Source: Clostridia bacterium
GTDB taxonomy: Bacteria > Bacillota > Clostridia > Oscillospirales > Acutalibacteraceae
Direction of reading: 5' to 3'
NCBI GenBank assembly: GCA_017475765.1
Contig: JAFVEY010000027.1
Coordinates: forward strand, 9,911-73,910
Length of the DNA: 64,000 nt
Every line of letters starts with the position of its first letter. The stretch's first letter is position 1. A program made the position numbers and the translations under genes. The notes beneath the pieces were generated by a model. That model did not search any database, was not told the origin of the DNA, and saw only the letters and a program-made list of their open reading frames with translations. Below, piece by piece: positions 31,191 through 40,605 of this stretch.

Positions 31191-32813
31191 TTATGATTCG
31201 GGTTTGGGTGTTGTATCGGACGGAAGTTCGCCGTTTGTATCGGCGCTTCCTTCGGCGGCAGAGCCGTTATTTTCTCCGATATCCGACGGAGGAGAAGTTG
31301 AAATAATGCCCTTAAGCGGTTCCGCTAAGCTGGCAATCAGCTGCTGAAGCTCATCGTTGATGGGTTTTCCGTTAAGTGCCTGATTTTCCGCATTCAGCGT
31401 TTTCATAAGGGCAGGAATGTTCATAAGCGTATCAATAAGCACATTTCCTGTTCCTGATGCACCCGGACCGGCAGCGGTGCCGCCGATATTGACAAATTCG
31501 GCATTCTTTCCGAGATCCGCCATGATGGTTGCTGTCTTTGTCGCAATCTCTATTCTTGCGTTGGCTTCAATTCTGAGCTTTTCGATCTCAAAGTTTACCT
31601 TTTCGTTGGAAGCTCGTGCGTCGGCGAGAGCCTTTTCACCTTCTGCCTGCGCCATGAGTCTTGCCTTTTCTGCTTCTGCTTCTGCAAGACCCTTCTGACG
31701 TGTTATCTCGGCTTCGGCAAAACCCTTCTGCTTTTCAACATCGGCAACTGCCGTACCTTCCTTGCGTATCTTTTCGGCTTCGGCATCTGCTGCTATTTTG
31801 GTGGCGCTTGCCGCTCTTTCGGCAACAAGAACATCGGCTTCTGCGCTGATTTTTCTGACGCTGGCATCGGCTTCGGCGGCAATCTGTGCCTTTTGCTTTT
31901 CAGCCTCGGCACGGGTGGCGATTACTTCCTTCTCCTTCTGTGCGGCAAGGTTGGCCTGTTCCTGACGGACAACCTCGACACGACCCTGCTGGGTGGCAAC
32001 CTCCTGCTGTCTGATCGTTGTCTGAAGCTCTCCGGCTACTGCTGCATCTGCATTCGCCTTGTCTGTTTCGGATTTGAACTGGGCAAATTTGATCTGATTG
32101 TCACGCTGCTTTTCGGCAACTGCCAGCTGAGATTCCAGCTCATTCTGAGCAGCGACCTTTTCGGATTCTGCTTTCTGTGAGCGGACAGCCTGATCGACAA
32201 CCGCCTTTTTATTTTCAGCCGCCTGACGTTTTTCCTCCATGTCAAGTGCGGCGATATTGTCATAGTAACCGTTATTATCGGAAATATCCTGAATGTTGAG
32301 TGACACAAGCTCCATGCCCATGCTCTGCATTTCATCTTCAACGATTTCTTTTACTTTGTTGGTGAAGGTCACCTTATCTCTGAGAACCTCTTCCGGTGAC
32401 ATCGAAGCAACGATATCACGAACCGCACCTGTGAGCGTCAGGCGGACATCATTGATAATACCGTCCTGTCCTCTTTCCTTAAAGGACATGATCGCCTTTT
32501 TGAGCTTTTCCATATCGTTCGTATCCGGACGGATCTGAGCCGTCCAGTCGATGACGATCGGAACGGATGTTCTTGTTTTTACCTCGTCCTTGTCAGCCTT
32601 TACTGTCAACATACAAAGATCGAAATACTGTGCCTTGCGGAAAATCGGAATGACGAACGAGCCGCCCGAAACCTTTATTTTCGGTTCTTTTCCGCCGGTA
32701 ATGATAAGTGCTTTGTCGATATCCGCAACACGGTATATCATACAAAGAAACACGATTATTACAATCAGTACTGCTGCTGCTATTAAAACAGGAATAAAAA
32801 AGTCTTCCATCAT
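31191..32813 (-). CDS. SPFH/band-7 (flotillin-like) membrane protein with long coiled-coil
   Basis: N-terminal TM helix, an SPFH domain and Ala/Glu/Lys-rich repeats. Confidence 0.8.
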   Translation of the reverse strand: MMEDFFIPVLIAAAVLIVIIVFLCMIYRVADIDKALIITGGKEPKIKVSGGSFVIPIFRKAQYFDLCMLTVKADKDEVKTRTSVPIVIDWTAQIRPDTNDMEKLKKAIMSFKERGQDGIINDVRLTLTGAVRDIVASMSPEEVLRDKVTFTNKVKEIVEDEMQSMGMELVSLNIQDISDNNGYYDNIAALDMEEKRQAAENKKAVVDQAVRSQKAESEKVAAQNELESQLAVAEKQRDNQIKFAQFKSETDKANADAAVAGELQTTIRQQEVATQQGRVEVVRQEQANLAAQKEKEVIATRAEAEKQKAQIAAEADASVRKISAEADVLVAERAASATKIAADAEAEKIRKEGTAVADVEKQKGFAEAEITRQKGLAEAEAEKARLMAQAEGEKALADARASNEKVNFEIEKLRIEANARIEIATKTATIMADLGKNAEFVNIGGTAAGPGASGTGNVLIDTLMNIPALMKTLNAENQALNGKPINDELQQLIASLAEPLKGIISTSPPSDIGENNGSAAEGSADTNGELPSDTTPKPES

Positions 32814-33077
32814 TTTTCTCCTTTGCTTTTCACGATATGATGATTTTATGTGTGATCATATCAATAATACATTGGCTTCACCCCTTTTGGCATTACCTGA
32901 AATGATAGCATATTTTGATTAACGGATTATGTACTAAAATTAAATAATCATGTCCGGATAATGTCTAAAAAATGAACGAAGCTGTCATATTGCTCCCACG
33001 ATAAGGTTATAAATTTTATATATGAAATTTAATTAATTGATTTTATATAATGTATAACGGATTTGTTTTTAAACCTA

Positions 33078-33106
33078 TTGACAAAAAGAAAAAAAAGTGC
33101 TAATAT
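33078..33106 (+). promoter_or_regulatory. putative promoter for cysK (TTGACA-17-TAATAT)
   Basis: -35 at 33078-33083 and -10 at 33101-33106. Confidence 0.4.
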
Positions 33107-33197
33107 AAAACCTAGGAAACAGATAGGTTTAAAGGATAAAGAAACCGCTGGTGTCAGCCGAACCGTCATCTTCATAATATGAAAGGGAATGGTGAGT

Positions 33198-34127
33198 ATG
33201 AATACATTCGATACAGTTACAGATCTTATCGGAAAAACACCTCTTCTGAAGCTGGGCAATTTTGTAAGACAAAAGGAGCTTCATGCGTCTGTGTATGGAA
33301 AATTGGAGTATTATAATCCCGCAGGAAGCGTCAAGGACAGAGTCGCAAAAGCAATGATCGAGGATGCCGAGGATAAGGGAATTATTAATTCCGATACGGT
33401 GCTGATCGAGCCTACCAGCGGAAATACAGGAATAGGTCTTGCCGCCGTTGCTGCTTCAAAGGGTTACAGAATCATTCTTGCAATGCCTGAAACTATGAGC
33501 ATCGAAAGAAGAAATCTGCTCAAGGCTTACGGTGCGGAGCTTGTTCTGACAGAGGGTTCAAAGGGAATGAAGGGCGCTATCGCTAAGGCACAGGAGCTGG
33601 CGGCGGAAATACCCAACAGTTTTATTCCCGGTCAGTTTACTAATCCTGCCAATCCGCTGATTCACCTCAACACAACGGGTCCCGAAATCTGGGAGGATAC
33701 CGATGGAAAGGTTGATATCTTTGTGGCAGGTGTCGGAACAGGCGGAACGATCACCGGAACAGGTCAGTATCTGAAAAGCAAAAATCCGGAGATTAAAATT
33801 GTTGCAGTTGAACCAGCAGGCTCGCCTGTTCTGTCAGAGGGCAAGGCAGGACCGCATAAGATACAGGGTATCGGAGCCGGATTTGTTCCGGATATACTTG
33901 ATACCGAGGTTTTTGACGAAATTATTACCGTTGAAAACGAGGACGCTTTTGAGACTGGAAAAACGCTTGCAAGAAAGGAAGGACTTCTTGTCGGCATATC
34001 TTCGGGTGCAGCCGTCTGGGCTGCAGCAGAGCTTGCAAAGCGTCCCGAAAATAAGGGCAAACTGATTGTGGCACTTCTCCCCGATACGGGAGAACGCTAT
34101 CTTTCGACTCCGATGTTCTCGGAATAA
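33198..34127 (+). CDS. cysK: cysteine synthase A (O-acetylserine sulfhydrylase)
   Basis: LIGKTPL, the PLP-lysine motif SVKDR, and the TSGNTG and GAGTGGT motifs. Confidence 0.85.
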
Positions 34128-34161
34128 TACATCTTGATTTGAGGAAAGCGAGGAAAATATC

Positions 34162-34317
34162 ATGAAAGCACAGATAATGAAAAATATCAATGCTGTAAGA
34201 AATATGATCGAAGTCAACACAGTCCGCTTCAACACGCTCGCTAAGTCCGGAATTTCACGCTGTTTGTGTTGCTGTTGCTGCAGTTATACAGGCGGCGGTC
34301 TTTGCCTGCGCTTTTAA
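34162..34317 (+). CDS. unannotated 51-codon poly-cysteine leader ORF (MKAQIMKNINAVRNMIEVNTVRFNTLAKSGISRCLCCCCCSYTGGGLCLRF)
   Basis: ATG 34162 with RBS aggaa 6 nt upstream. Six Cys in seven codons at 34261-34281. A terminator follows directly. Too short to appear in the supplied ORF track. Confidence 0.45.
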   Translation: MKAQIMKNINAVRNMIEVNTVRFNTLAKSGISRCLCCCCCSYTGGGLCLRF

Positions 34318-34350
34318 TCAAGCAGGGGGTATAAGATAGAATTGAAACAA

Positions 34351-34423
34351 GGACTCCGCCTGTTTATTTCTCCTGAACGATATTTTCGGGAGTTTGGGCG
34401 GAGTCTTTTTGTGTTTTGTTTTT
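34351..34423 (+). terminator. intrinsic terminator / attenuator between the leader ORF and the methyltransferase-metK operon
   Basis: ggactccgcc (34351-34360) pairs with ggcggagtc (34397-34405). There is an inner hairpin in the loop and a U-rich run at 34406-34423. Confidence 0.6.
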
Positions 34424-34450
34424 GGATCCATAAAATTGAGGTGACTGACA

Positions 34451-35356
34451 ATGATAGATACATTGGAGAGCGTGACGGCAAAGCTTTGCTCCTTTGCCAG
34501 AGCGTATCATTCAAATTACGGCAGGCAGAAGATTTTTGACGATTATCTTGCTTTTGATATTATGGGCAAGCAGCAGTATGATGAGATCGGGCAGCTGATA
34601 CAAAAGGGCTTTGAGCTTTCGGGACTTGATCTCAACAGCGGTTTCAGCGGACAGAAGGTTTATCCTGAGCTGAACAGGTATATCGCTCCGATTCCTCTTT
34701 CGAGAATTGCTTTTGCGGAACGGGAACTGACAAAATTTGCAGAGGAAAAAGGCAGATGTCAGTATGTGATATGCGGCGCAGGAATGGACACCTTTGCTTT
34801 CCGCAATGAAAATCCTGATATAGAGGTTTTTGAGCTTGACCACCCTGATACAAGCCGCTATAAGCTGAACAGGATCAGGGAGCTTGAATGGAATATTCCT
34901 GAAAATGTAAGCTACGTTCCGATTGATTTCTCAAAGGATGATATGACAGAGGTGCTGAAAAATGCAGGCTTTGATTCTGAGCTTCCGACATTTTATGCTA
35001 TACTGGGAGTAACTTATTATCTGACGCTTCCTGTTTTTGAGCAGACAATTGAAAAAATTAACCGCTTGTCTGCCGGCGGCGGCAAACTGGTTTTCGATTT
35101 TCCTGATGAAACAACACTCAGCAAAAAAGCAGCGGACAGAGTGAAACGACTTACAGAGATCACCGCAAAGCTGGGGGAGCCGATGCAGCATGGTTTTTCC
35201 GTCAGCGAAATAAAAAACGCACTTGAAAGACATCATTTTACAATAGAGGTTCATAAAACACCCGAAAAAATACAAAATCAGTTTTTTGATAAAAGAACGG
35301 ACGGGCAGACCGCTTTTGAAAATATACATTTTATACTTGCAAAAAAGGAGAAGTGA
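34451..35356 (+). CDS. class I SAM-dependent methyltransferase (LCM/TcmP-like; YrrT-type position in the operon)
   Basis: GAGMDT SAM-binding motif I; first gene of the metK-luxS-transsulfuration operon. Confidence 0.65.
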
Positions 35357-35358
35357 TT

Positions 35359-36546
35359 ATGAGTACATTTATTTTTACATCCGAATCGGTGACAAAAGGA
35401 CATCCGGATAAAGTAAGTGATATCATTTCGGATTCAGTACTGGACGCCTATATTGAAAAGGATCCCAGAGCCCGTGTGGCTGTGGAAACGGTTGTCAAGA
35501 ATAATACGATCATTCTTGTCGGAGAGATTTCTTCGGCGGCAGAAATAGATATTGATTCTGTTGTCAGGGACGCCGTCAGGAATATCGGCTATAACCGCAG
35601 CGAACTCGGCTTTGATGCTGACGGCGCAGAGATCATTGTGCGGCTTGAAAGACAGTCGCCCGATATTGCAGGAGGCGTTGACAAGGCGCTTGAAATAAGG
35701 GATGGAGATGCCGGAAAGGAGGAAGAGATCGGTGCAGGAGATCAGGGAATGATGTTCGGCTTCGCAACAGACGAAACGCCCGAATATATGCCCGTTGCCA
35801 TTACCTATGCACACCGTCTTGCCAAAAGACTGACAGACGTCAGGGAAAAAGGGATTCTTCCGTATCTCCGTCCGGACGGAAAGACACAGGTTTCGGCTGT
35901 ATATACAGACGGCGAGTTTACAGGCATTGATACCGTTGTCGTTTCAACACAGCATGACCCTGATGTGACGCAGGAGCAGCTCAGGGAGGATATTATCAAA
36001 GAGGTGATCAAGCCTGTTCTTACTGACAAGCTGAACGATTCCGTCAAGATACTCGTCAACCCCACAGGCAGATTTGTCATCGGCGGTCCTGTCGGCGACA
36101 GCGGTCTGACAGGCAGAAAGATCATTGTTGATACCTACGGCGGTTCGGCACGTCACGGCGGCGGAGCATTTTCGGGAAAGGATCCGACAAAGGTTGACCG
36201 CAGCGCTGCTTATGCTGCGAGGTATGCAGCCAAAAACATCGTTGCTGCAGGACTTGCGAAAAAAGTAGAAATACAGCTTGCCTATGCCATCGGTGTCGCT
36301 TCCCCTGTTTCAATCAATGTGAATACCTTCGGAACAGGAACAGTTCCGGATGATATTATAAGGGAGGCTATTGAAAATGTATTGGATCTCAGACCGAAGG
36401 GAATCATCAATTCTCTCGGACTGCGCAGACCGATATATGCTCAGACGGCGGCTTACGGTCACTTCGGCAGAAACGATCTTGATCTGCCATGGGAAAAACT
36501 CGATATAACCGATCAGCTCAGAAATTATACGGAGGGAAGAAAATGA
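35359..36546 (+). CDS. metK: S-adenosylmethionine synthetase
   Basis: [19 protein letters not shown], and [16 protein letters not shown] motifs. Confidence 0.9.
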
Positions 36547-37004
36547 AAACAATTGCCAGCTTCACAGTCAACCATGATAAGCTCGACAGAGGAATGTATA
36601 CCTCAAGAATAGACGGAGACGCTGTTACTTATGATATAAGAATGAAGAAGCCGAATAACGGAGATTATCTTGAAAACGGCGCACTCCATACGATTGAACA
36701 TCTTTTTGCCACTTATGTGCGCAACGGCAGCCTGTCGGATAATATCATATATGTCGGTCCTATGGGCTGTCGGACAGGCTTTTATCTGATTGTCCGTGAC
36801 AGCATCCGCCCGGCGGATGCCATCAGGCTTGTTCAGCAGACATTTGAATTCATTGCCGGTTTTGAAGGGGAGATTCCGGGCAATCAAAGACAGGAATGCG
36901 GCAATTATCTGGAGCATGATCTGGACGGTGCCAAAAAGGAAGCAGCTTTGATGATCGATGTCCTGAAGGATTGGACAGAAGATCAACTGAAATATAAAAA
37001 CTGA
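36543..37004 (+). CDS. luxS: S-ribosylhomocysteine lyase
   Basis: HTIEHL metal-binding motif, about 153 aa, and an ATGA start/stop overlap with metK. Confidence 0.85.
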
Positions 37005-37022
37005 TATCAGGAGGAAATTGTT

Positions 37023-38180
37023 ATGTCAGAATATAAATTTATTGAATCGGCGCTGATTCACGGAGGAATTTACGGAGATAAGACCACAGGAGCAGTTAAT
37101 GTTCCTATTTATCAGACCTCGACCTATGAACAGAAGGCTCTTGGCGAAAATACGGGATGGGAATATTCAAGAACGGGTAACCCGACAAGAGCTGCGCTGG
37201 AAGCGCTGATCGCAGAGTTGGAAAAGGGCAGCGCAGGTTTTGCTTTTGCTTCGGGAATGGCAGCGATCACAGCTGTTCTGAGTCTTTTCAAATCCGGAGA
37301 TAAGGTGCTGATATCCAGCAATGTGTATGGAGGTACTTTCAGAGTTCTTGATAAGGTATTCAACAATTTCAATATCGGATATTCGATAGAGGATACCACC
37401 AATCTGAAAGCGCTGGAGGAAAAGATTACTCCCGATGTAAAGGCAATCCTGGTTGAAAGTCCTGCCAATCCGCTGCTGACGGTAACGGATCTGGGTGCTG
37501 TTGCGGCACTTGCCAAAAAGCACGGAATCCTTTCCATTGTTGACAATACGTTTATGACACCTTATCTTCAGCGTCCGATCGAGCTTGGAGTGGATATTGT
37601 TATCCACAGCGCAACAAAATATCTTGGCGGACACAGCGATGTAGTGGCAGGTCTTGTCGTTGTTAATGATGATACCCTTGCCGAAAGACTTGCCTTTATA
37701 CAGAATTCCACAGGCGGCGTTCTTGGCCCGTTTGATTCCTTCCTTCTCATCAGAGGTATCAAGACGCTGGGTGTACGTCTTGACCGTCATGTGGAAAATG
37801 CAGAGAAGGCAGCAGCATTCCTTAAGGCTCACAAGGGAGTCAGGAATGTTTACTACCCCGGACTTCCCGAAGCGCAGGGCTATGAGATCAACAAAAAACA
37901 GGCGAAAAACGGCGGTGTTATGATCTCCTTTGAGCTGGACGAAAAATATGACATCAAGAAGTTTTTCTCATCGCTAAAGCTGATCGCCCTTGCCGAAAGT
38001 CTCGGAGGAGTGGAAAGCCTTGTTTGCCATCCAGCAAGCATGACACACGCTTCTATTCCCTATGAAATCAGACAAAAGGTCGGAATTACAGACGGACTGA
38101 TCCGTCTTTCTATCGGAATTGAAAATATTGAGGATATACTGGCTGATCTTGAAAATGCAATTGCAGAAAGCGAGAGATAA
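37023..38180 (+). CDS. trans-sulfuration PLP enzyme (cystathionine gamma-lyase / homocysteine gamma-lyase, MccB-like)
   Basis: Cys/Met-metabolism PLP fold with the PLP-lysine in the SATKYLGGHSDV region. Confidence 0.75.
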   Translation: MSEYKFIESALIHGGIYGDKTTGAVNVPIYQTSTYEQKALGENTGWEYSRTGNPTRAALEALIAELEKGSAGFAFASGMAAITAVLSLFKSGDKVLISSNVYGGTFRVLDKVFNNFNIGYSIEDTTNLKALEEKITPDVKAILVESPANPLLTVTDLGAVAALAKKHGILSIVDNTFMTPYLQRPIELGVDIVIHSATKYLGGHSDVVAGLVVVNDDTLAERLAFIQNSTGGVLGPFDSFLLIRGIKTLGVRLDRHVENAEKAAAFLKAHKGVRNVYYPGLPEAQGYEINKKQAKNGGVMISFELDEKYDIKKFFSSLKLIALAESLGGVESLVCHPASMTHASIPYEIRQKVGITDGLIRLSIGIENIEDILADLENAIAESER

Positions 38181-38182
38181 TT

Positions 38183-39094
38183 ATGGGCTATTTTGATTCA
38201 ATGCAGGAGCTTATCGGCAACACACCGCTTGTACGTCTCAGACATATTGATCTTCCTGAAGGTGCAGTTATTTTTGCAAAGCTGGAGTATTATAATCCTT
38301 CCGGAAGTGTTAAGGACAGGATCGGAAAATTCATGCTTGAGGACTTTGAAAAAAGAGGAGTGCTCAAAAAAGGCGGAACCATCGTTGATGCAACGGCAGG
38401 AAATACAGGTCTTGGAATTGCATTTGCGGCGCTTAACAAGGGTTACAGAGTGATATTTACCGTTCCAACAAAATTTTCGGAGGAGAAGCAGACCCTTCTC
38501 CGTGCGCTGGGTGCAGAAATCATCAATACACCCCGTGAGGAGGGTATGCTCGGAGCAGCAAGAAAAGCGGAAGAGCTCAGACAGTCCATTGAAGGCGCAG
38601 TATCGCTTGAACAGTTCAGAAATCAGGCAAATCCGCAGACGCATTACGAATCCACGGGACCAGAACTTTACCGTGATCTTGACGGCAGGATAGACTATCT
38701 TGTGGCAGGAGCAGGAAGCGGCGGAACTTACAGCGGAACGGTTCGCTATCTGAAGGAGCAGAATCCGGCAGTCAAGGGTGTTCTTGCTGATCCGGTTGGC
38801 TCTACGATCGGCGGCGGCGAGCATGGGGATTATGATATCGAGGGAATAGGAAATGATTTTATTCCTGAAACTATGGACACCTCTCTTGTCGATACAGTTG
38901 TCAAGATAACCGATACAGACGCTTACGAAGGTGCAAGAGAGCTTGCAGCAAAAGAAGGAATTTTTGCCGGCTCTTCATCGGGTGCAGCACTGGCGGCAGC
39001 AAAAAAACTGATCGAAAGCGGTGCAAGAGGCAATGTAGTTATTATTCTTCCCGACAGAGGAGACCGCTATTTTAGCAAAAATCTTTATGAGTGA
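38183..39094 (+). CDS. cysteine synthase family protein (MccA / cystathionine beta-synthase-like)
   Basis: LIGNTPL, SVKDR, TAGNTG, GAGSGGT; paralog of cysK, placed directly after the gamma-lyase. Confidence 0.75.
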   Translation: MGYFDSMQELIGNTPLVRLRHIDLPEGAVIFAKLEYYNPSGSVKDRIGKFMLEDFEKRGVLKKGGTIVDATAGNTGLGIAFAALNKGYRVIFTVPTKFSEEKQTLLRALGAEIINTPREEGMLGAARKAEELRQSIEGAVSLEQFRNQANPQTHYESTGPELYRDLDGRIDYLVAGAGSGGTYSGTVRYLKEQNPAVKGVLADPVGSTIGGGEHGDYDIEGIGNDFIPETMDTSLVDTVVKITDTDAYEGARELAAKEGIFAGSSSGAALAAAKKLIESGARGNVVIILPDRGDRYFSKNLYE

Positions 39095-40038: not shown

Positions 40039-40310
40039 TCATTTTGTCCGGTAAAATACAGATTTGGCGGTAATACATGATAATTGATTTTTGCCCCGGA
40101 GGGGAGTCAGGTCAGCAGCATCGACTGTTTTTCCTGCTTCTCCTGCGGGGCAAATATTATGCGGATTTTTTTGAACCTTTTTTGATTTCCCATATTATAG
40201 TGATAAAAATGTCGAAAAATGCTCGGATTTTGATAGATAATTTATAGAATACCTATAAATACTATATTCACATATAGATTTGGATTATCACCTATTATAC
40301 CTATATGATA

Positions 40311-40340
40311 TTGGACAATGTCGGGATTTGGCGTTATAAT
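40311..40340 (+). promoter_or_regulatory. putative promoter (TTGGAC-18-TATAAT) giving a ~265-nt leader for the ABC transporter operon
   Basis: -35 at 40311-40316 and -10 at 40335-40340. Confidence 0.4.
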
Positions 40341-40368
40341 ATTCCCATACCAACAATAAGGGGGCTAA

Positions 40369-40458
40369 ATGATGACGGCAGGAATTAATCCGGACAATCA
40401 GATGTGTATTGACACAGCAAAATGCAGCTTTGAGCGATGTTGCGGTTTACGAATGTGA
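40369..40458 (+). CDS. possible 29-codon leader sORF (MMTAGINPDNQMCIDTAKCSFERCCGLRM) rich in Met/Cys
   Basis: RBS aaggggg 3-6 nt upstream of a tandem ATGATG. It lies in the 5' leader of a sulfur-compound ABC transporter, and no clear terminator follows. Confidence 0.2.
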   Translation: MMTAGINPDNQMCIDTAKCSFERCCGLRM

Positions 40459-40605
40459 CTTTGTCAGCAGAGATTCTGCTTATCGTGAAAAGGGCAGCTT
40501 GCGGAGGTCAGAAGGTCTCCTGTTTTATGCCTGTTTATGAATGAAATGAAGAAACAATTATAACAAACAGAAAGGGATATGTTTATAACATATATGGTGA
40601 TAATT

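Follow-up and report, generated by a model that had tools for sequence, protein, structure and literature searches.

Our analysis of a 64,000-nt stretch of DNA from a Clostridia bacterium (hereafter the window) identified, between cysK and a downstream operon, a leader region that we interpret as a classical four-region, ribosome-mediated transcription attenuator reading the charging of Cys-tRNA. Judging from sequence comparison and RNA folding, we place the probability of this interpretation at roughly 0.85. The arrangement of the leader is real and beyond chance. As its genetic context suggests, the attenuator would control an operon for the conversion of methionine to cysteine, usually from inside a transcript led by cysK. 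The first-pass annotation of the window had proposed a layout of the trp/his/leu type; this is supported by our results, which add a protector hairpin (regions 1 and 2) that had been overlooked, and in which the Cys codons form the 5' arm.

The leader ORF (34162-34317, forward strand, as are all features described below) comprises 51 codons and the stop codon TAA (34315-34317), and encodes the peptide MKAQIMKNINAVRNMIEVNTVRFNTLAKSGISRCLCCCCCSYTGGGLCLRF. It is equipped with a Shine-Dalgarno sequence (GAGGAA, 34150-34155) placed 6 nt 5' of its ATG (34162). The putative regulatory codons, Cys-Leu-Cys-Cys-Cys-Cys-Cys (tgt ttg tgt tgc tgt tgc tgc; 34261-34281), contain six Cys in seven codons, with seven Cys in the 51 codons overall. 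No other stretch of the 64-kb window has at least five Cys in seven codons in any of the six frames. The ORF, its ribosome binding site and the codon run had been described correctly on first inspection. The amino acid specified by the codon cluster is the predicted product of the pathway encoded downstream.

Three alternative helices can be formed by four regions of the leader RNA. Region 1 (34258-34269) overlaps the first Cys codons and pairs with 34286-34297, which gives a 1:2 protector hairpin (-22.7 kcal/mol) sequestering region 2. The latter (34288-34303) starts 27 nt past the first Cys codon, consists of the core ACAGGCGG (34288-34295) plus CGGTCTTT, and has either region 1 or region 3 as its partner. 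The antiterminator strand had earlier been given as caggcggcggtcttt at 34288-34303; the letters were right, but they occupy 34289-34303, a coordinate error of one base. Region 3 (AAGGACTCCGCCTGT, 34349-34363; core motif given as CCGCCTGT) serves the terminator as its 5' arm and the antiterminator as its 3' arm, and region 4 (TGGGCGGAGTCTTT, 34395-34408), the 3' arm of the terminator, includes GGGCGG and is followed by the U run. The antiterminator (34288-34303 with 34349-34363) is composed of 8+7 bp separated by a one-base bulge. The terminator stem (34349-34362 with 34395-34408) has 14 bp and encloses both arms recognized previously, ggactccgcc (34351-34360) and ggcggagtc (34397-34405). With the inner hairpin in its loop (34370-34392) and the U-rich tract (34406-34423, ending 27 nt before the methyltransferase gene), both of which had also been noted, it constitutes a predicted intrinsic terminator separating the leader ORF from the first structural gene; the 3:4 fold amounts to -27.2 kcal/mol. 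A small hairpin (34298-34337) whose loop holds the stop codon lies between regions 2 and 3, and comparable TTCTG...CAGAA hairpins around the stop were seen by eye in several other loci. A search for further copies of the attenuator elsewhere in the 64-kb window yielded none.

The intergenic RNA folds considerably better than its dinucleotide shuffles (z = -4.9). In constrained folds of the window RNA, the 1:2 hairpin plus the terminator was obtained both when the ribosome was left out and when it was placed at the stop codon. When a ribosome mask was placed on Cys codon 2 and the RNA ended at 34366-34392, the minimum free energy structure was the antiterminator, which excludes the terminator. 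The mutually exclusive structures proposed in the first-pass annotation, including the pairing with the 5' arm of the terminator, were thus recovered, the antiterminator solely with a ribosome on the Cys codons. The antiterminator appeared under the mask solely when region 4 was omitted; in equilibrium folding with region 1 masked and region 4 present, the terminator was still favoured by 4.9 kcal/mol. Since the antiterminator loses at equilibrium once region 4 is present, the switch would have to be kinetic, and the ribosome would therefore have to keep up with RNA polymerase.

The leader peptide had no match in Pfam or NCBIfam, and a search of 5.8 billion proteins returned a single, near-identical relative. 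The family is therefore invisible at the protein level and was gathered by means of orthologues of the methyltransferase gene, which provided 80 loci; 72 sequences were aligned. A short ORF with at least four Cys in seven codons occupies the equivalent position in 68 of the 80 loci. The Cys run, the terminator (called only where 45 nt or more separated its 5' arm from the Cys run) and the antiterminator are conserved across Clostridia, namely in Ruminococcus, Lachnospiraceae, Oscillospiraceae, Acutalibacteraceae and Christensenellales, as well as in Anaerotignum, Ruminiclostridium, Eubacterium oxidoreducens and Bianquea. Cultured candidates among the carriers are E. oxidoreducens DSM 3217, Ruminiclostridium sufflavum DSM 19573, Anaerotignum propionicum, Bianquea renquensis NSJ-32 and Ruminococcus sp. 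JE7B6. In seven loci a U-rich stretch is also found 3' of region 3. Four orthologous loci (L047, L066, L071 and L073) are devoid of the element, and the Cys run is reduced in L021. A metagenome scan based on regions 2-4 only gave 79 matches, 19 on further contigs with a poly-Cys run just upstream and 60 without such a run; all 18 poly-Cys matches with recognisable neighbours were situated in cysK, methyltransferase or mccB loci, and no copy before unrelated genes was detected by this pattern scan. Overall, the element is carried by about 90 loci of gut and rumen Clostridia.

The pairing regions are supported by covariation. The terminator helix is paired in 87% of cells and shows compensatory changes in 10 of 12 pairs, a value reached by 0/500 shuffles. 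For the antiterminator, 86% of cells are paired and seven of the ten pairs are compensatory, so that both competing helices covary. The 1:2 protector is paired in 83% of cells, compared with 27-48% when its register is slid; its few compensatory changes are explained by the fact that the Cys codons are fixed. Register-shifted controls over the three helices gave 27-50% pairing. Triple covariation of regions 2, 3 and 4 is visible in individual loci: CAGGTGG / CCACCTG / CAGGTGG in L005, TCAGGCGG / CCGCCTGA / TCAGGCGG in L011, AAGGCGG / CCGCCTT / AGGCGG in L045, and GCGGACGG / CCGTCCGT / GGACGG in L010. Local folds recovered the 1:2 helix in 68, the 2:3 helix in 68 and the 3:4 helix in 71 of the 72 sequences, and the terminator helix was predicted by RNAalifold unguided.

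The helices are the most conserved nucleotides of the element, which would also be expected if it were a switch working independently of translation (either a riboswitch or a protein- or tRNA-binding RNA) and the ORF were incidental. The same may be said of a conserved “TGG”, which we rejected as a peptide motif: it is merely the RNA of region 2 read as codons, because the leaders of L007 and L013 stop before region 2. We nevertheless regard such a switch as very unlikely. An ATG with a Shine-Dalgarno sequence is present in the Cys frame of 68 of the 72 aligned sequences and in either other frame of none (0/72). Conservation is largely confined to the three helices and the UGY run, with no obvious conserved loop or junction for a ligand pocket seen, and a tRNA-Cys sensor that depends on a translating ribosome would need just such Cys codons. 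Rfam provided no family match either; there was no gathering-score match to the T-box riboswitch (RF00230) or to SAM riboswitches (S-box) in the window, and none in 26 related loci, in agreement with the earlier statement that an S-box is missing.

Even less credence should be given to the view that the short ORF encodes a functional Cys-rich micropeptide (for instance a metal binder, or a precursor of the RiPP/SCIFF type) and that the hairpin is a plain terminator of cysK. Small Cys-rich peptides are known in Clostridia, and 40-50 aa is long for a leader peptide. The peptide, however, has neither a Pfam or NCBIfam match nor more than the one near-identical relative mentioned above; it is poorly conserved outside the Cys run, and its C-terminal tail and stop position are variable. 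The N-terminal part of the leader appears to be only weakly constrained (136 synonymous versus 233 non-synonymous differences; 143/171/225 by codon position), a pattern that suits a spacer and not a protein. There is no precursor family match of the SCIFF, ranthipeptide or other Cys-rich RiPP type and no adjacent maturase or radical-SAM gene, all neighbours being involved in sulfur metabolism. Moreover, the terminator is also present where cysK is absent upstream, and there is no room for a promoter between the terminator and the operon. As leaders of a putative attenuator, the family ORFs are 21-53 aa long (median 45) with 3-8 Cys, their runs use TGT and TGC in the proportion 253:128, the start of the region 2 core lies 21-31 nt (mode 24) past the first Cys codon, and the stop lies 5' of the 5' arm of the terminator in 71 of the 72 aligned sequences.

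The gene context provides further support for the attenuator. cysK (33189-34127; O-acetylserine sulfhydrylase, NCBIfam TIGR01139, 468 bits) is preceded by a promoter-like site, TTGACA-17-TAATAT (TG-extended, 33078-33106), which is the likely source of the leader-bearing transcript. Immediately 3' of the -10 box lies the palindrome AAACCTA-N9-TAGGTTT (33108-33130), a candidate repressor operator that might provide a first layer of control; in related loci a CCTAT-N7-9-ATAGG palindrome follows the -10 box of the promoter driving cysK or the leader directly. In 59 loci cysK is located immediately 5' of the leader on the same strand, at a distance of 34 nt in the window and of 6-49 nt (median 18 nt; 87 nt in one locus) in this set. 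No promoter-like site able to transcribe the leader ATG was found between cysK and the leader ORF. cysK and the attenuator thus appear to belong to one transcription unit, with cysK upstream. Loci without cysK contain a near-consensus promoter 5' of the leader, at a distance of 50-80 nt or, in three cases, of up to 195 nt.

Downstream of the attenuator, and with the identities proposed on the first pass for both flanks, there are genes encoding an LCM-type SAM methyltransferase (34451-35356; ATG 34451, Shine-Dalgarno sequence 34438-34443, outside the terminator), MetK (35353-36546), LuxS (about 36543-37004), an MccB-like Cys/Met PLP gamma-lyase (37023-38180) and an MccA-like CysK/M-like enzyme (38183-39094). 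The products of this block (34451-39094), which is followed by a LysR regulator gene, are predicted to turn methionine jointly into cysteine. Synteny of the operon is kept across the loci, with metK and luxS being optional. No promoter-like site is present within 34406-34450, and in the family the T run is usually separated from the methyltransferase ATG by 22-52 nt, which is too short for a promoter; expression of the operon would therefore require read-through. These observations also bear on another explanation, a chance ORF beside an ordinary cysK terminator, with the operon served by its own promoter. In the window the hairpin does come after cysK, but the ORF with the Cys run and both alternative helices are kept in about 90 loci, no promoter-like site separates the U-rich tract from the methyltransferase gene, and the same element stands behind a dedicated promoter where cysK is missing. 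We consider coincidence of this kind to be scarcely credible.

The following mechanism may be envisaged for the attenuator, in which the translation of the leader, the cysteine-dependent stalling and the kinetic choice of structure are inferred. Transcription would start upstream of cysK (or at the dedicated promoter in loci without it) and proceed into the leader ORF of 51 codons. With plentiful cysteine, the ribosome would reach the stop codon, situated between regions 2 and 3, leaving region 2 either covered or re-paired with region 1 behind the ribosome; the 3:4 terminator would then form and the transcript would consist of cysK and the leader only. A ribosome that has reached the stop codon of the window leader would leave the core of region 2 uncovered, so termination would probably rely on re-folding of the 1:2 hairpin behind it. 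When charged Cys-tRNA is scarce, the ribosome would stall on the first Cys codons and mask region 1, region 2 would capture region 3 as soon as the latter is made, and the terminator would be blocked. RNA polymerase could then continue into the methyltransferase gene, metK, luxS, mccB and mccA, whose products would lead from methionine through SAM, SAH and homocysteine to cysteine.

By this route, antitermination would follow from whatever slows the ribosome in region 1, and it might be argued that the true signal is not the supply of cysteine but translation stress, oxidised Cys-tRNA or arrest by the nascent peptide. The family runs often include a single codon for Met or Leu (CCCMCC, CCLCC), which could be taken to point in the same direction. 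This codon falls inside the 1:2 helix, so a reason at the RNA level suffices to explain it. Given that 4-6 Cys in seven codons are found across 68 loci and that the regulated genes serve cysteine production, we see only a very slight chance that a signal of this sort is the relevant one, and we retain Cys-tRNA charging as the probable input.

The poly-Cys attenuator of Clostridia is a well-supported regulatory RNA family absent from Rfam 15. We found no description of it in Clostridia in the searchable literature, a search that excluded subscription journals and regulon databases. The sole Rfam match at E ≤ 10 over 32800-34700 was a spurious lncRNA, which was discarded; no relevant family was matched. 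The family would explain how abundant rumen and gut Clostridia turn on the synthesis of cysteine from methionine. It is also of value for annotation, in which the short ORFs are nearly always missed and the terminator might pass for the end of the cysK unit, and it might provide anaerobes with a cysteine-responsive expression part. Such an attenuator needs a ribosome close behind RNA polymerase, which would make the element a natural reporter of transcription-translation coupling in Clostridia. In Bacillus subtilis, transcription reportedly outruns translation.

Other Cys-codon uORFs were observed in the course of this analysis. A 10-codon uORF ending in Lys-Arg-Cys-stop is placed 5' of cysK in the same loci, and a leader of the form MCMCM...RCCxxRM (followed by a stop) precedes a sulfonate-type ABC transporter (an ssuA-like gene in the window). 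The Cys leader of the ssuA-like gene folds no better than its shuffles (z = -0.2) and no antiterminator was found in it. We tentatively suggest, at somewhat less than even odds, that rumen and gut Clostridia possess a cysteine “ribulon”, in which unrelated families of Cys-codon uORFs (KRC-stop, poly-Cys and RCCxxRM-stop) are layered on a shared promoter operator. If this is true, a lineage of Firmicutes would rely on ribosomes, and not on T-boxes, as its main cysteine sensors, and the leading ribosome would keep pace with RNA polymerase, unlike in the uncoupling reported for B. subtilis.

The closest formal parallels are the enterobacterial attenuators (trpL, hisL, leuL, pheL, thrL, ilvL), which have a translated leader with a run of cognate codons and 1:2, 2:3 and 3:4 pairings, terminate by default without translation, and permit read-through when a ribosome stalls on the regulatory codons. 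The element of Clostridia shares with them an ORF with codons for the cognate amino acid, the four regions and a terminator before the first gene. It differs in that it would sense cysteine, has no sequence similarity to them, has a long leader (median 45 codons), usually includes region 2 within the ORF (with the stop between regions 2 and 3), and is mostly intra-operonic, lying 6-49 nt past cysK (87 nt in one locus) and not at the 5' end.

Poly-Cys uORFs upstream of cysteine genes in mycobacteria had been correctly pointed out in the first-pass annotation: these polycysteine sORFs are leaderless and act on translation, with the stalled ribosome opening a structure that hides the RBS (Canestrari et al., bioRxiv 10.1101/834739). 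For the predicted Cys leader peptides of Actinobacteria, no conserved terminator hairpins were detected (PMC1262725). Runs of Cys codons, downstream genes of cysteine metabolism and a stalled ribosome as the (here putative) sensor are common to the mycobacterial and clostridial systems. In contrast to the former, the clostridial sORF has a Shine-Dalgarno sequence and is placed inside a longer transcript (59 loci), so that it is not leaderless, and the element has a conserved terminator and antiterminator, with the Shine-Dalgarno sequence of the methyltransferase gene outside the terminator and not sequestered. Another predicted attenuator, uORFC-8-2, is located before cysS in Rhodobacterales and combines a stem that holds Cys codons with an intrinsic terminator and its U run (Brewer et al. 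2021, PMC8632094). Its tandem Cys codons number two, compared with 4-6 in the element of Clostridia, and it is alpha-proteobacterial and controls the gene for cysteinyl-tRNA synthetase, not cysteine synthesis; judged from its description, taxon, downstream gene and Cys codon number suggest two unrelated families.

Leader-peptide attenuators are rare in Firmicutes, in which T-boxes usually fill the role of amino-acid attenuators. In Clostridium acetobutylicum, ubiG-mccB-mccA is controlled by a Cys-specific T-box and an S-box-driven antisense RNA (André et al. 2008, PMC2566862). This T-box has in common with our element an operon with methyltransferase and mccB/mccA genes, tRNA-Cys charging as the (in our case predicted) signal, and antitermination. 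The T-box RNA binds uncharged tRNA directly, whereas the element described here would sense it by means of translated Cys codons. The yrrT-mtnN-mccA-mccB operon of B. subtilis, which resembles the clostridial one in its pathway and in having the methyltransferase gene first, is said to be repressed by CymR. Control in B. subtilis is exerted by a promoter-bound repressor protein only, and to our knowledge this operon has no leader peptide; the palindrome following the -10 box in Clostridia may be equivalent to a CymR-type repressor site. One regulatory problem would appear to have been met in different ways, C. acetobutylicum using a Cys T-box, Bacillus CymR, and the Clostridia studied here a poly-Cys leader as the sensor.

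The comparative and folding evidence predicts that the poly-Cys element between cysK and the methyltransferase operon is a ribosome-mediated, cysteine-responsive attenuator (probability about 0.85), which supports the interpretation proposed in the first-pass annotation. The leader ORF (34162-34317, translated as MKAQIMKNINAVRNMIEVNTVRFNTLAKSGISRCLCCCCCSYTGGGLCLRF) is preceded by the Shine-Dalgarno sequence GAGGAA (34150-34155, 6 nt upstream of the ATG) and contains the regulatory codons Cys-Leu-Cys-Cys-Cys-Cys-Cys (34261-34281). It is followed by a terminator stem (34349-34362 paired with 34395-34408) enclosing an inner hairpin (34370-34392), and directly after the terminator by a U-rich run (34406-34423); the methyltransferase gene starts at 34451. 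The ORF, Shine-Dalgarno sequence, Cys codons, terminator and U-rich run had all been annotated earlier and were confirmed; the antiterminator segment was correct in sequence but misplaced by one base, since caggcggcggtcttt occupies 34289-34303. The Cys run is the sole stretch with at least five Cys in seven codons in all six frames of the 64-kb window, and comparison with dinucleotide shuffles gave a folding z of -4.9 for the 323-nt intergenic RNA; both results argue against a chance origin.

The leader peptide had no match in Pfam or NCBIfam and a single relative (96% identical) among 5.8 billion proteins. As it is untraceable by sequence, loci were collected through the methyltransferase, which has 1140 relatives with E<=1e-20; an alignment of 23 methyltransferase relatives led to 80 loci from one-genome-per-species contigs. 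The search of orthologous regions for poly-Cys sORFs, suggested in the first-pass annotation, was positive in 68 of these 80 loci (at least four Cys in seven codons, within 450 nt upstream of the methyltransferase gene), the sORF ending about 75-150 nt before that gene, with typical tails ...CCCMCC(C)xDTGG... and ...CCLCCC..TGG. The carriers include Ruminococcus, Lachnospiraceae, Oscillospiraceae, Acutalibacteraceae and Christensenellales, as well as Eubacterium oxidoreducens DSM 3217, Bianquea renquensis, Ruminiclostridium sufflavum, Lachnoclostridium sp. MSJ-17 and two Anaerotignum species, and the conserved gene order is cysK-[leader]-methyltransferase-(metK)-(luxS)-mccB-mccA-(lysR). Several loci (L-numbers) depart from this arrangement: L047 and L066 pass straight from promoter and operator to the methyltransferase gene, without a leader; in L071 the methyltransferase gene adjoins cysK and the attenuator is missing; a KRC-type uORF takes the place of the leader in L073; L021 has a reduced leader with 3 Cys (VCRC...GCLLRF-stop) and retains the terminator; and L143 lacks the methyltransferase gene, its leader standing immediately before mccB.

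An ATG with GGAG, GAGG or AGGA ahead of it was present in the Cys frame of 68 of 72 aligned sequences and never in the two remaining frames (0/72), and the leader stop lay upstream of the terminator 5' arm in 71/72. Leaders comprise 21-53 aa (median 45) with 3-8 Cys, encoded by TGT (253) and TGC (128). A functional micropeptide finds little encouragement in the N-terminal 28 codons: in one clade we counted 136 synonymous and 233 non-synonymous single-base differences, and differences by codon position (143/171/225) showed little third-position excess, indicating scant constraint on the peptide apart from its Cys run. The "TGG" following the Cys run, which is ACAGGCGGC translated, was likewise rejected as a peptide motif, because in L007 and L013 a stop codon precedes these nucleotides and they are still kept; their conservation is therefore at the RNA level. 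As an independent check, metagenome contigs were scanned with a pattern built only from the distal RNA pairing segments (regions 2-4, below) and the T run. Of 79 matches, 19 had a poly-Cys run immediately upstream; the 18 whose flanking genes could be recognised all lay in cysK, methyltransferase or mccB loci (the remaining short contig, L145, has no visible neighbouring gene); the other 60, about the chance expectation, had no Cys run and unrelated surroundings. None of the 79 matches placed the attenuator before another kind of gene. This outcome ties the Cys run to the RNA switch. The rival readings (a translation-independent switch, a functional micropeptide, another stalling signal and chance) are, even jointly, improbable.

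The RNA part of the proposed attenuator consists of four regions forming three alternative helices. In the 72-sequence alignment, region 2 (ACAGGCGG(C)) lies right behind the Cys run, region 3 is CCGCCTGT or CCGTCTGT, and region 4 is CAGGCGG, followed by T's. The 3:4 terminator was paired in 87% of cells (40-51% when slid), with compensatory changes in 10 of 12 pairs, and the 2:3 antiterminator in 86% (31-49% when slid), with such changes in 7 of 10 pairs; these values were reached by 0/500 and 0-2/500 shuffles, respectively. The 1:2 protector, formed by the Cys codons with region 2, was paired in 83% of cells (27-48% when slid), with few compensatory changes because one arm must stay UGY. In some lineages regions 2, 3 and 4 have changed in concert, reading, in that order, CAGGTGG, CCACCTG and CAGGTGG in L005; TCAGGCGG, CCGCCTGA and TCAGGCGG in L011; AAGGCGG, CCGCCTT and AGGCGG in L045; and GCGGACGG, CCGTCCGT and GGACGG in L010. 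Unguided RNAalifold recovered the terminator core, and local folds of individual sequences gave 1:2 in 68/72, 2:3 in 68/72 and 3:4 in 71/72, with median energies of -15.4, -20.7 and -22.8 kcal/mol (-22.7, -29.4 and -27.2 kcal/mol in the window). The start of region 2 lies 21-31 nt (mode 24) past the first Cys codon, so that a ribosome halted on early Cys codons would mask region 1 and free region 2.

Without a ribosome, the window RNA folded into 1:2, a stop-codon hairpin and the terminator; placing a 28-nt mask over the stop codon, with the codon at its centre, gave 1:2 and the terminator. When the second Cys codon was masked and the RNA ended before region 4 (at 34366, 34380 or 34392), the MFE structure was the antiterminator (34288-34295 and 34297-34303 with 34349-34363; 8+7 bp, one bulged base). 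This is the very helix put forward in the first-pass annotation, and the two folds are mutually exclusive, as it had anticipated. Adding region 4 makes the terminator the more stable fold by 4.9 kcal/mol, so the choice has to rest on kinetics, as it does in classical attenuators. With the leader stop codon placed between regions 2 and 3, a median of 24 nt from the terminator 5' arm, a terminating ribosome leaves region 3 uncovered; in the window it would also expose the region 2 core, and we infer that 1:2 re-forms behind it. Low Cys-tRNA would thus induce the methionine-to-cysteine genes, which is physiologically sensible. The small hairpin between regions 2 and 3 (34298-34337) holds the stop codon in its loop, and such TTCTG..TAA..CAGAA hairpins were seen in several loci; they may draw regions 2 and 3 together, or melt under the terminating ribosome.

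Family matches confirmed the neighbouring genes named earlier: cysK (33189-34127; TIGR01139, 468 bits) and, downstream of the leader, genes for an LCM-type SAM-dependent methyltransferase, MetK, LuxS, a PLP gamma-lyase of Cys/Met metabolism (MccB-like) and a CysK/CysM-like enzyme (MccA-like). After these come genes for a LysR regulator and an SsuA-like binding protein. The regulated operon (34451-39094) contains metK and luxS and lacks an SAH nucleosidase gene (mtnN/pfs), a step which must be encoded elsewhere. MetK would supply SAM, the methyltransferase would convert it to SAH, the external nucleosidase and then LuxS would yield homocysteine, and MccA and MccB would lead through cystathionine to cysteine. 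By analogy with B. subtilis yrrT-mtnN-mccAB, a pathway reportedly described by Hullo et al. in 2007, and with C. acetobutylicum ubiG-mccBA, the operon is assigned to methionine-to-cysteine conversion; the methyltransferase slot is filled by an LCM/TIGR00027-type enzyme here, by YrrT in B. subtilis and by UbiG in C. acetobutylicum. The work on ubiG-mccBA underlies this assignment (PMC2566862).

In 59 loci the gap between the cysK end and the leader ATG is 6-49 nt (87 nt in one; median 18; 34 in the window), which leaves no space for a promoter and places the attenuator inside a cysK-led transcript, where it doubles as a conditional end of the cysK unit. The 12 loci without cysK have a TTGACA-17-TATAAT-like promoter (10-12 of 12 matches) 50-80 nt (nine loci) or 134-195 nt (three) upstream of the leader ATG. 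The T run usually lies 22-52 nt from the first structural gene, and no promoter-like site was found in window 34406-34450; downstream expression therefore requires read-through, ruling out a mere cysK terminator. Rfam 15 gave no match in the whole window at the gathering score, nothing relevant in a permissive scan of 32800-34700, and one tRNA and nothing else in 26 related loci. There is thus no T-box and no S-box, in line with the earlier remark that no S-box precedes metK.

Other Cys-codon uORFs occur in these loci. An unrelated leader, equipped with a conserved promoter region, separates lysR from the SsuA-like ABC-transporter gene (40312-40530: promoter-like 40312-40340, sORF 40369-40458, hairpin 40503-40520 plus T run). 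It encodes MMTAGINPDNQMCIDTAKCSFERCCGLRM-stop in the window and, for example, MTAITIEKENMCMCMMRSEDCCIMRCCVSRM-stop in relatives (pattern ...NMCMCM...CCxxRCCxxRM-stop, up to 7 Cys), and also occurs in L002, L009, L011, L062, L065, L073, L129 and L144. A terminator-like hairpin and T run come after most copies; the window copy folds no better than shuffles (z = -0.2), and no antiterminator was found for this leader. A conserved block, (t)ataggNtcagcctattacc...cctataNgatattggaca (window about 40270-40317; also in L002, L011, L065, L129 and L144), overlaps the -35 region of its promoter and may be a site for the adjacent LysR regulator. Between this leader and the ssuA-like gene, L065 (minus strand), L073 and L011 have small lipoprotein-like ORFs in which DCC / CC motifs recur (e.g. 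MKLRILTAVFTAAVLLMAMTGCSSDDGKSDCCKSGAESSDCCSSGADGESVPDCCKGK). A third class, in the cysK 5' UTR of 38/56 related loci (e.g. L028 about 2700-2830, L042, L045, L062) and absent from window 33107-33188, has about 10 codons, a strong SD, the end ...QKRC-stop (or RCCC-stop) and conserved nucleotides AAACGATGTTGA, and stops about 32 nt short of the cysK start codon, near the cysK SD or paired with it. In 10/21 local folds its 3' part pairs with that SD, and this uORF resembles a translational Cys sensor of mycobacterial type; it shares the CGATGTTG motif with the ssuA leader class. Finally, a palindrome, CCTAT-N7-9-ATAGG (AAACCTAT-N7-9-ATAGGTTT), directly follows the -10 box of the cysK- or leader-driving promoter (window 33108-33130; also L007, L008, L009, L012, L021, L042, L045, L047, L048, L066 and L073), even in the leader-less L047 and L066. 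This palindrome is a probable repressor operator that may bind a CymR/Rrf2-like protein. Sketched only in outline, the ssuA leader, cysK uORF and palindrome together suggest a layered, largely ribosome-read cysteine regulon.

No description of the element in Clostridia was found in the full-text literature searched, which includes few subscription journals, so an earlier one may exist. The element thus appears to represent an undescribed regulatory family, with a textbook mechanism, in abundant anaerobes, and raises the question of transcription-translation coupling in Firmicutes. Leader-peptide attenuators are few in Firmicutes, the first, according to Naville and Gautheret, being a His leader in bacilli (PMC2965389). 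The mycobacterial poly-Cys sORFs, rightly mentioned in the first-pass annotation (10.1101/834739), are leaderless and act on translation, without terminators (10.1101/834739; PMC1262725), and uORFC-8-2 before cysS in Rhodobacterales combines two Cys codons with a terminator (PMC8632094). The Cys T-box of C. acetobutylicum reads the same signal, Cys-tRNA, as proposed here. Every defining feature of the trp/his/leu-type attenuators that can be checked in silico was found in this element; its intra-operonic position, its long leader and the fact that the regulatory codons also serve as region 1 are unusual, and vary the detail, not the principle, of classical attenuators.
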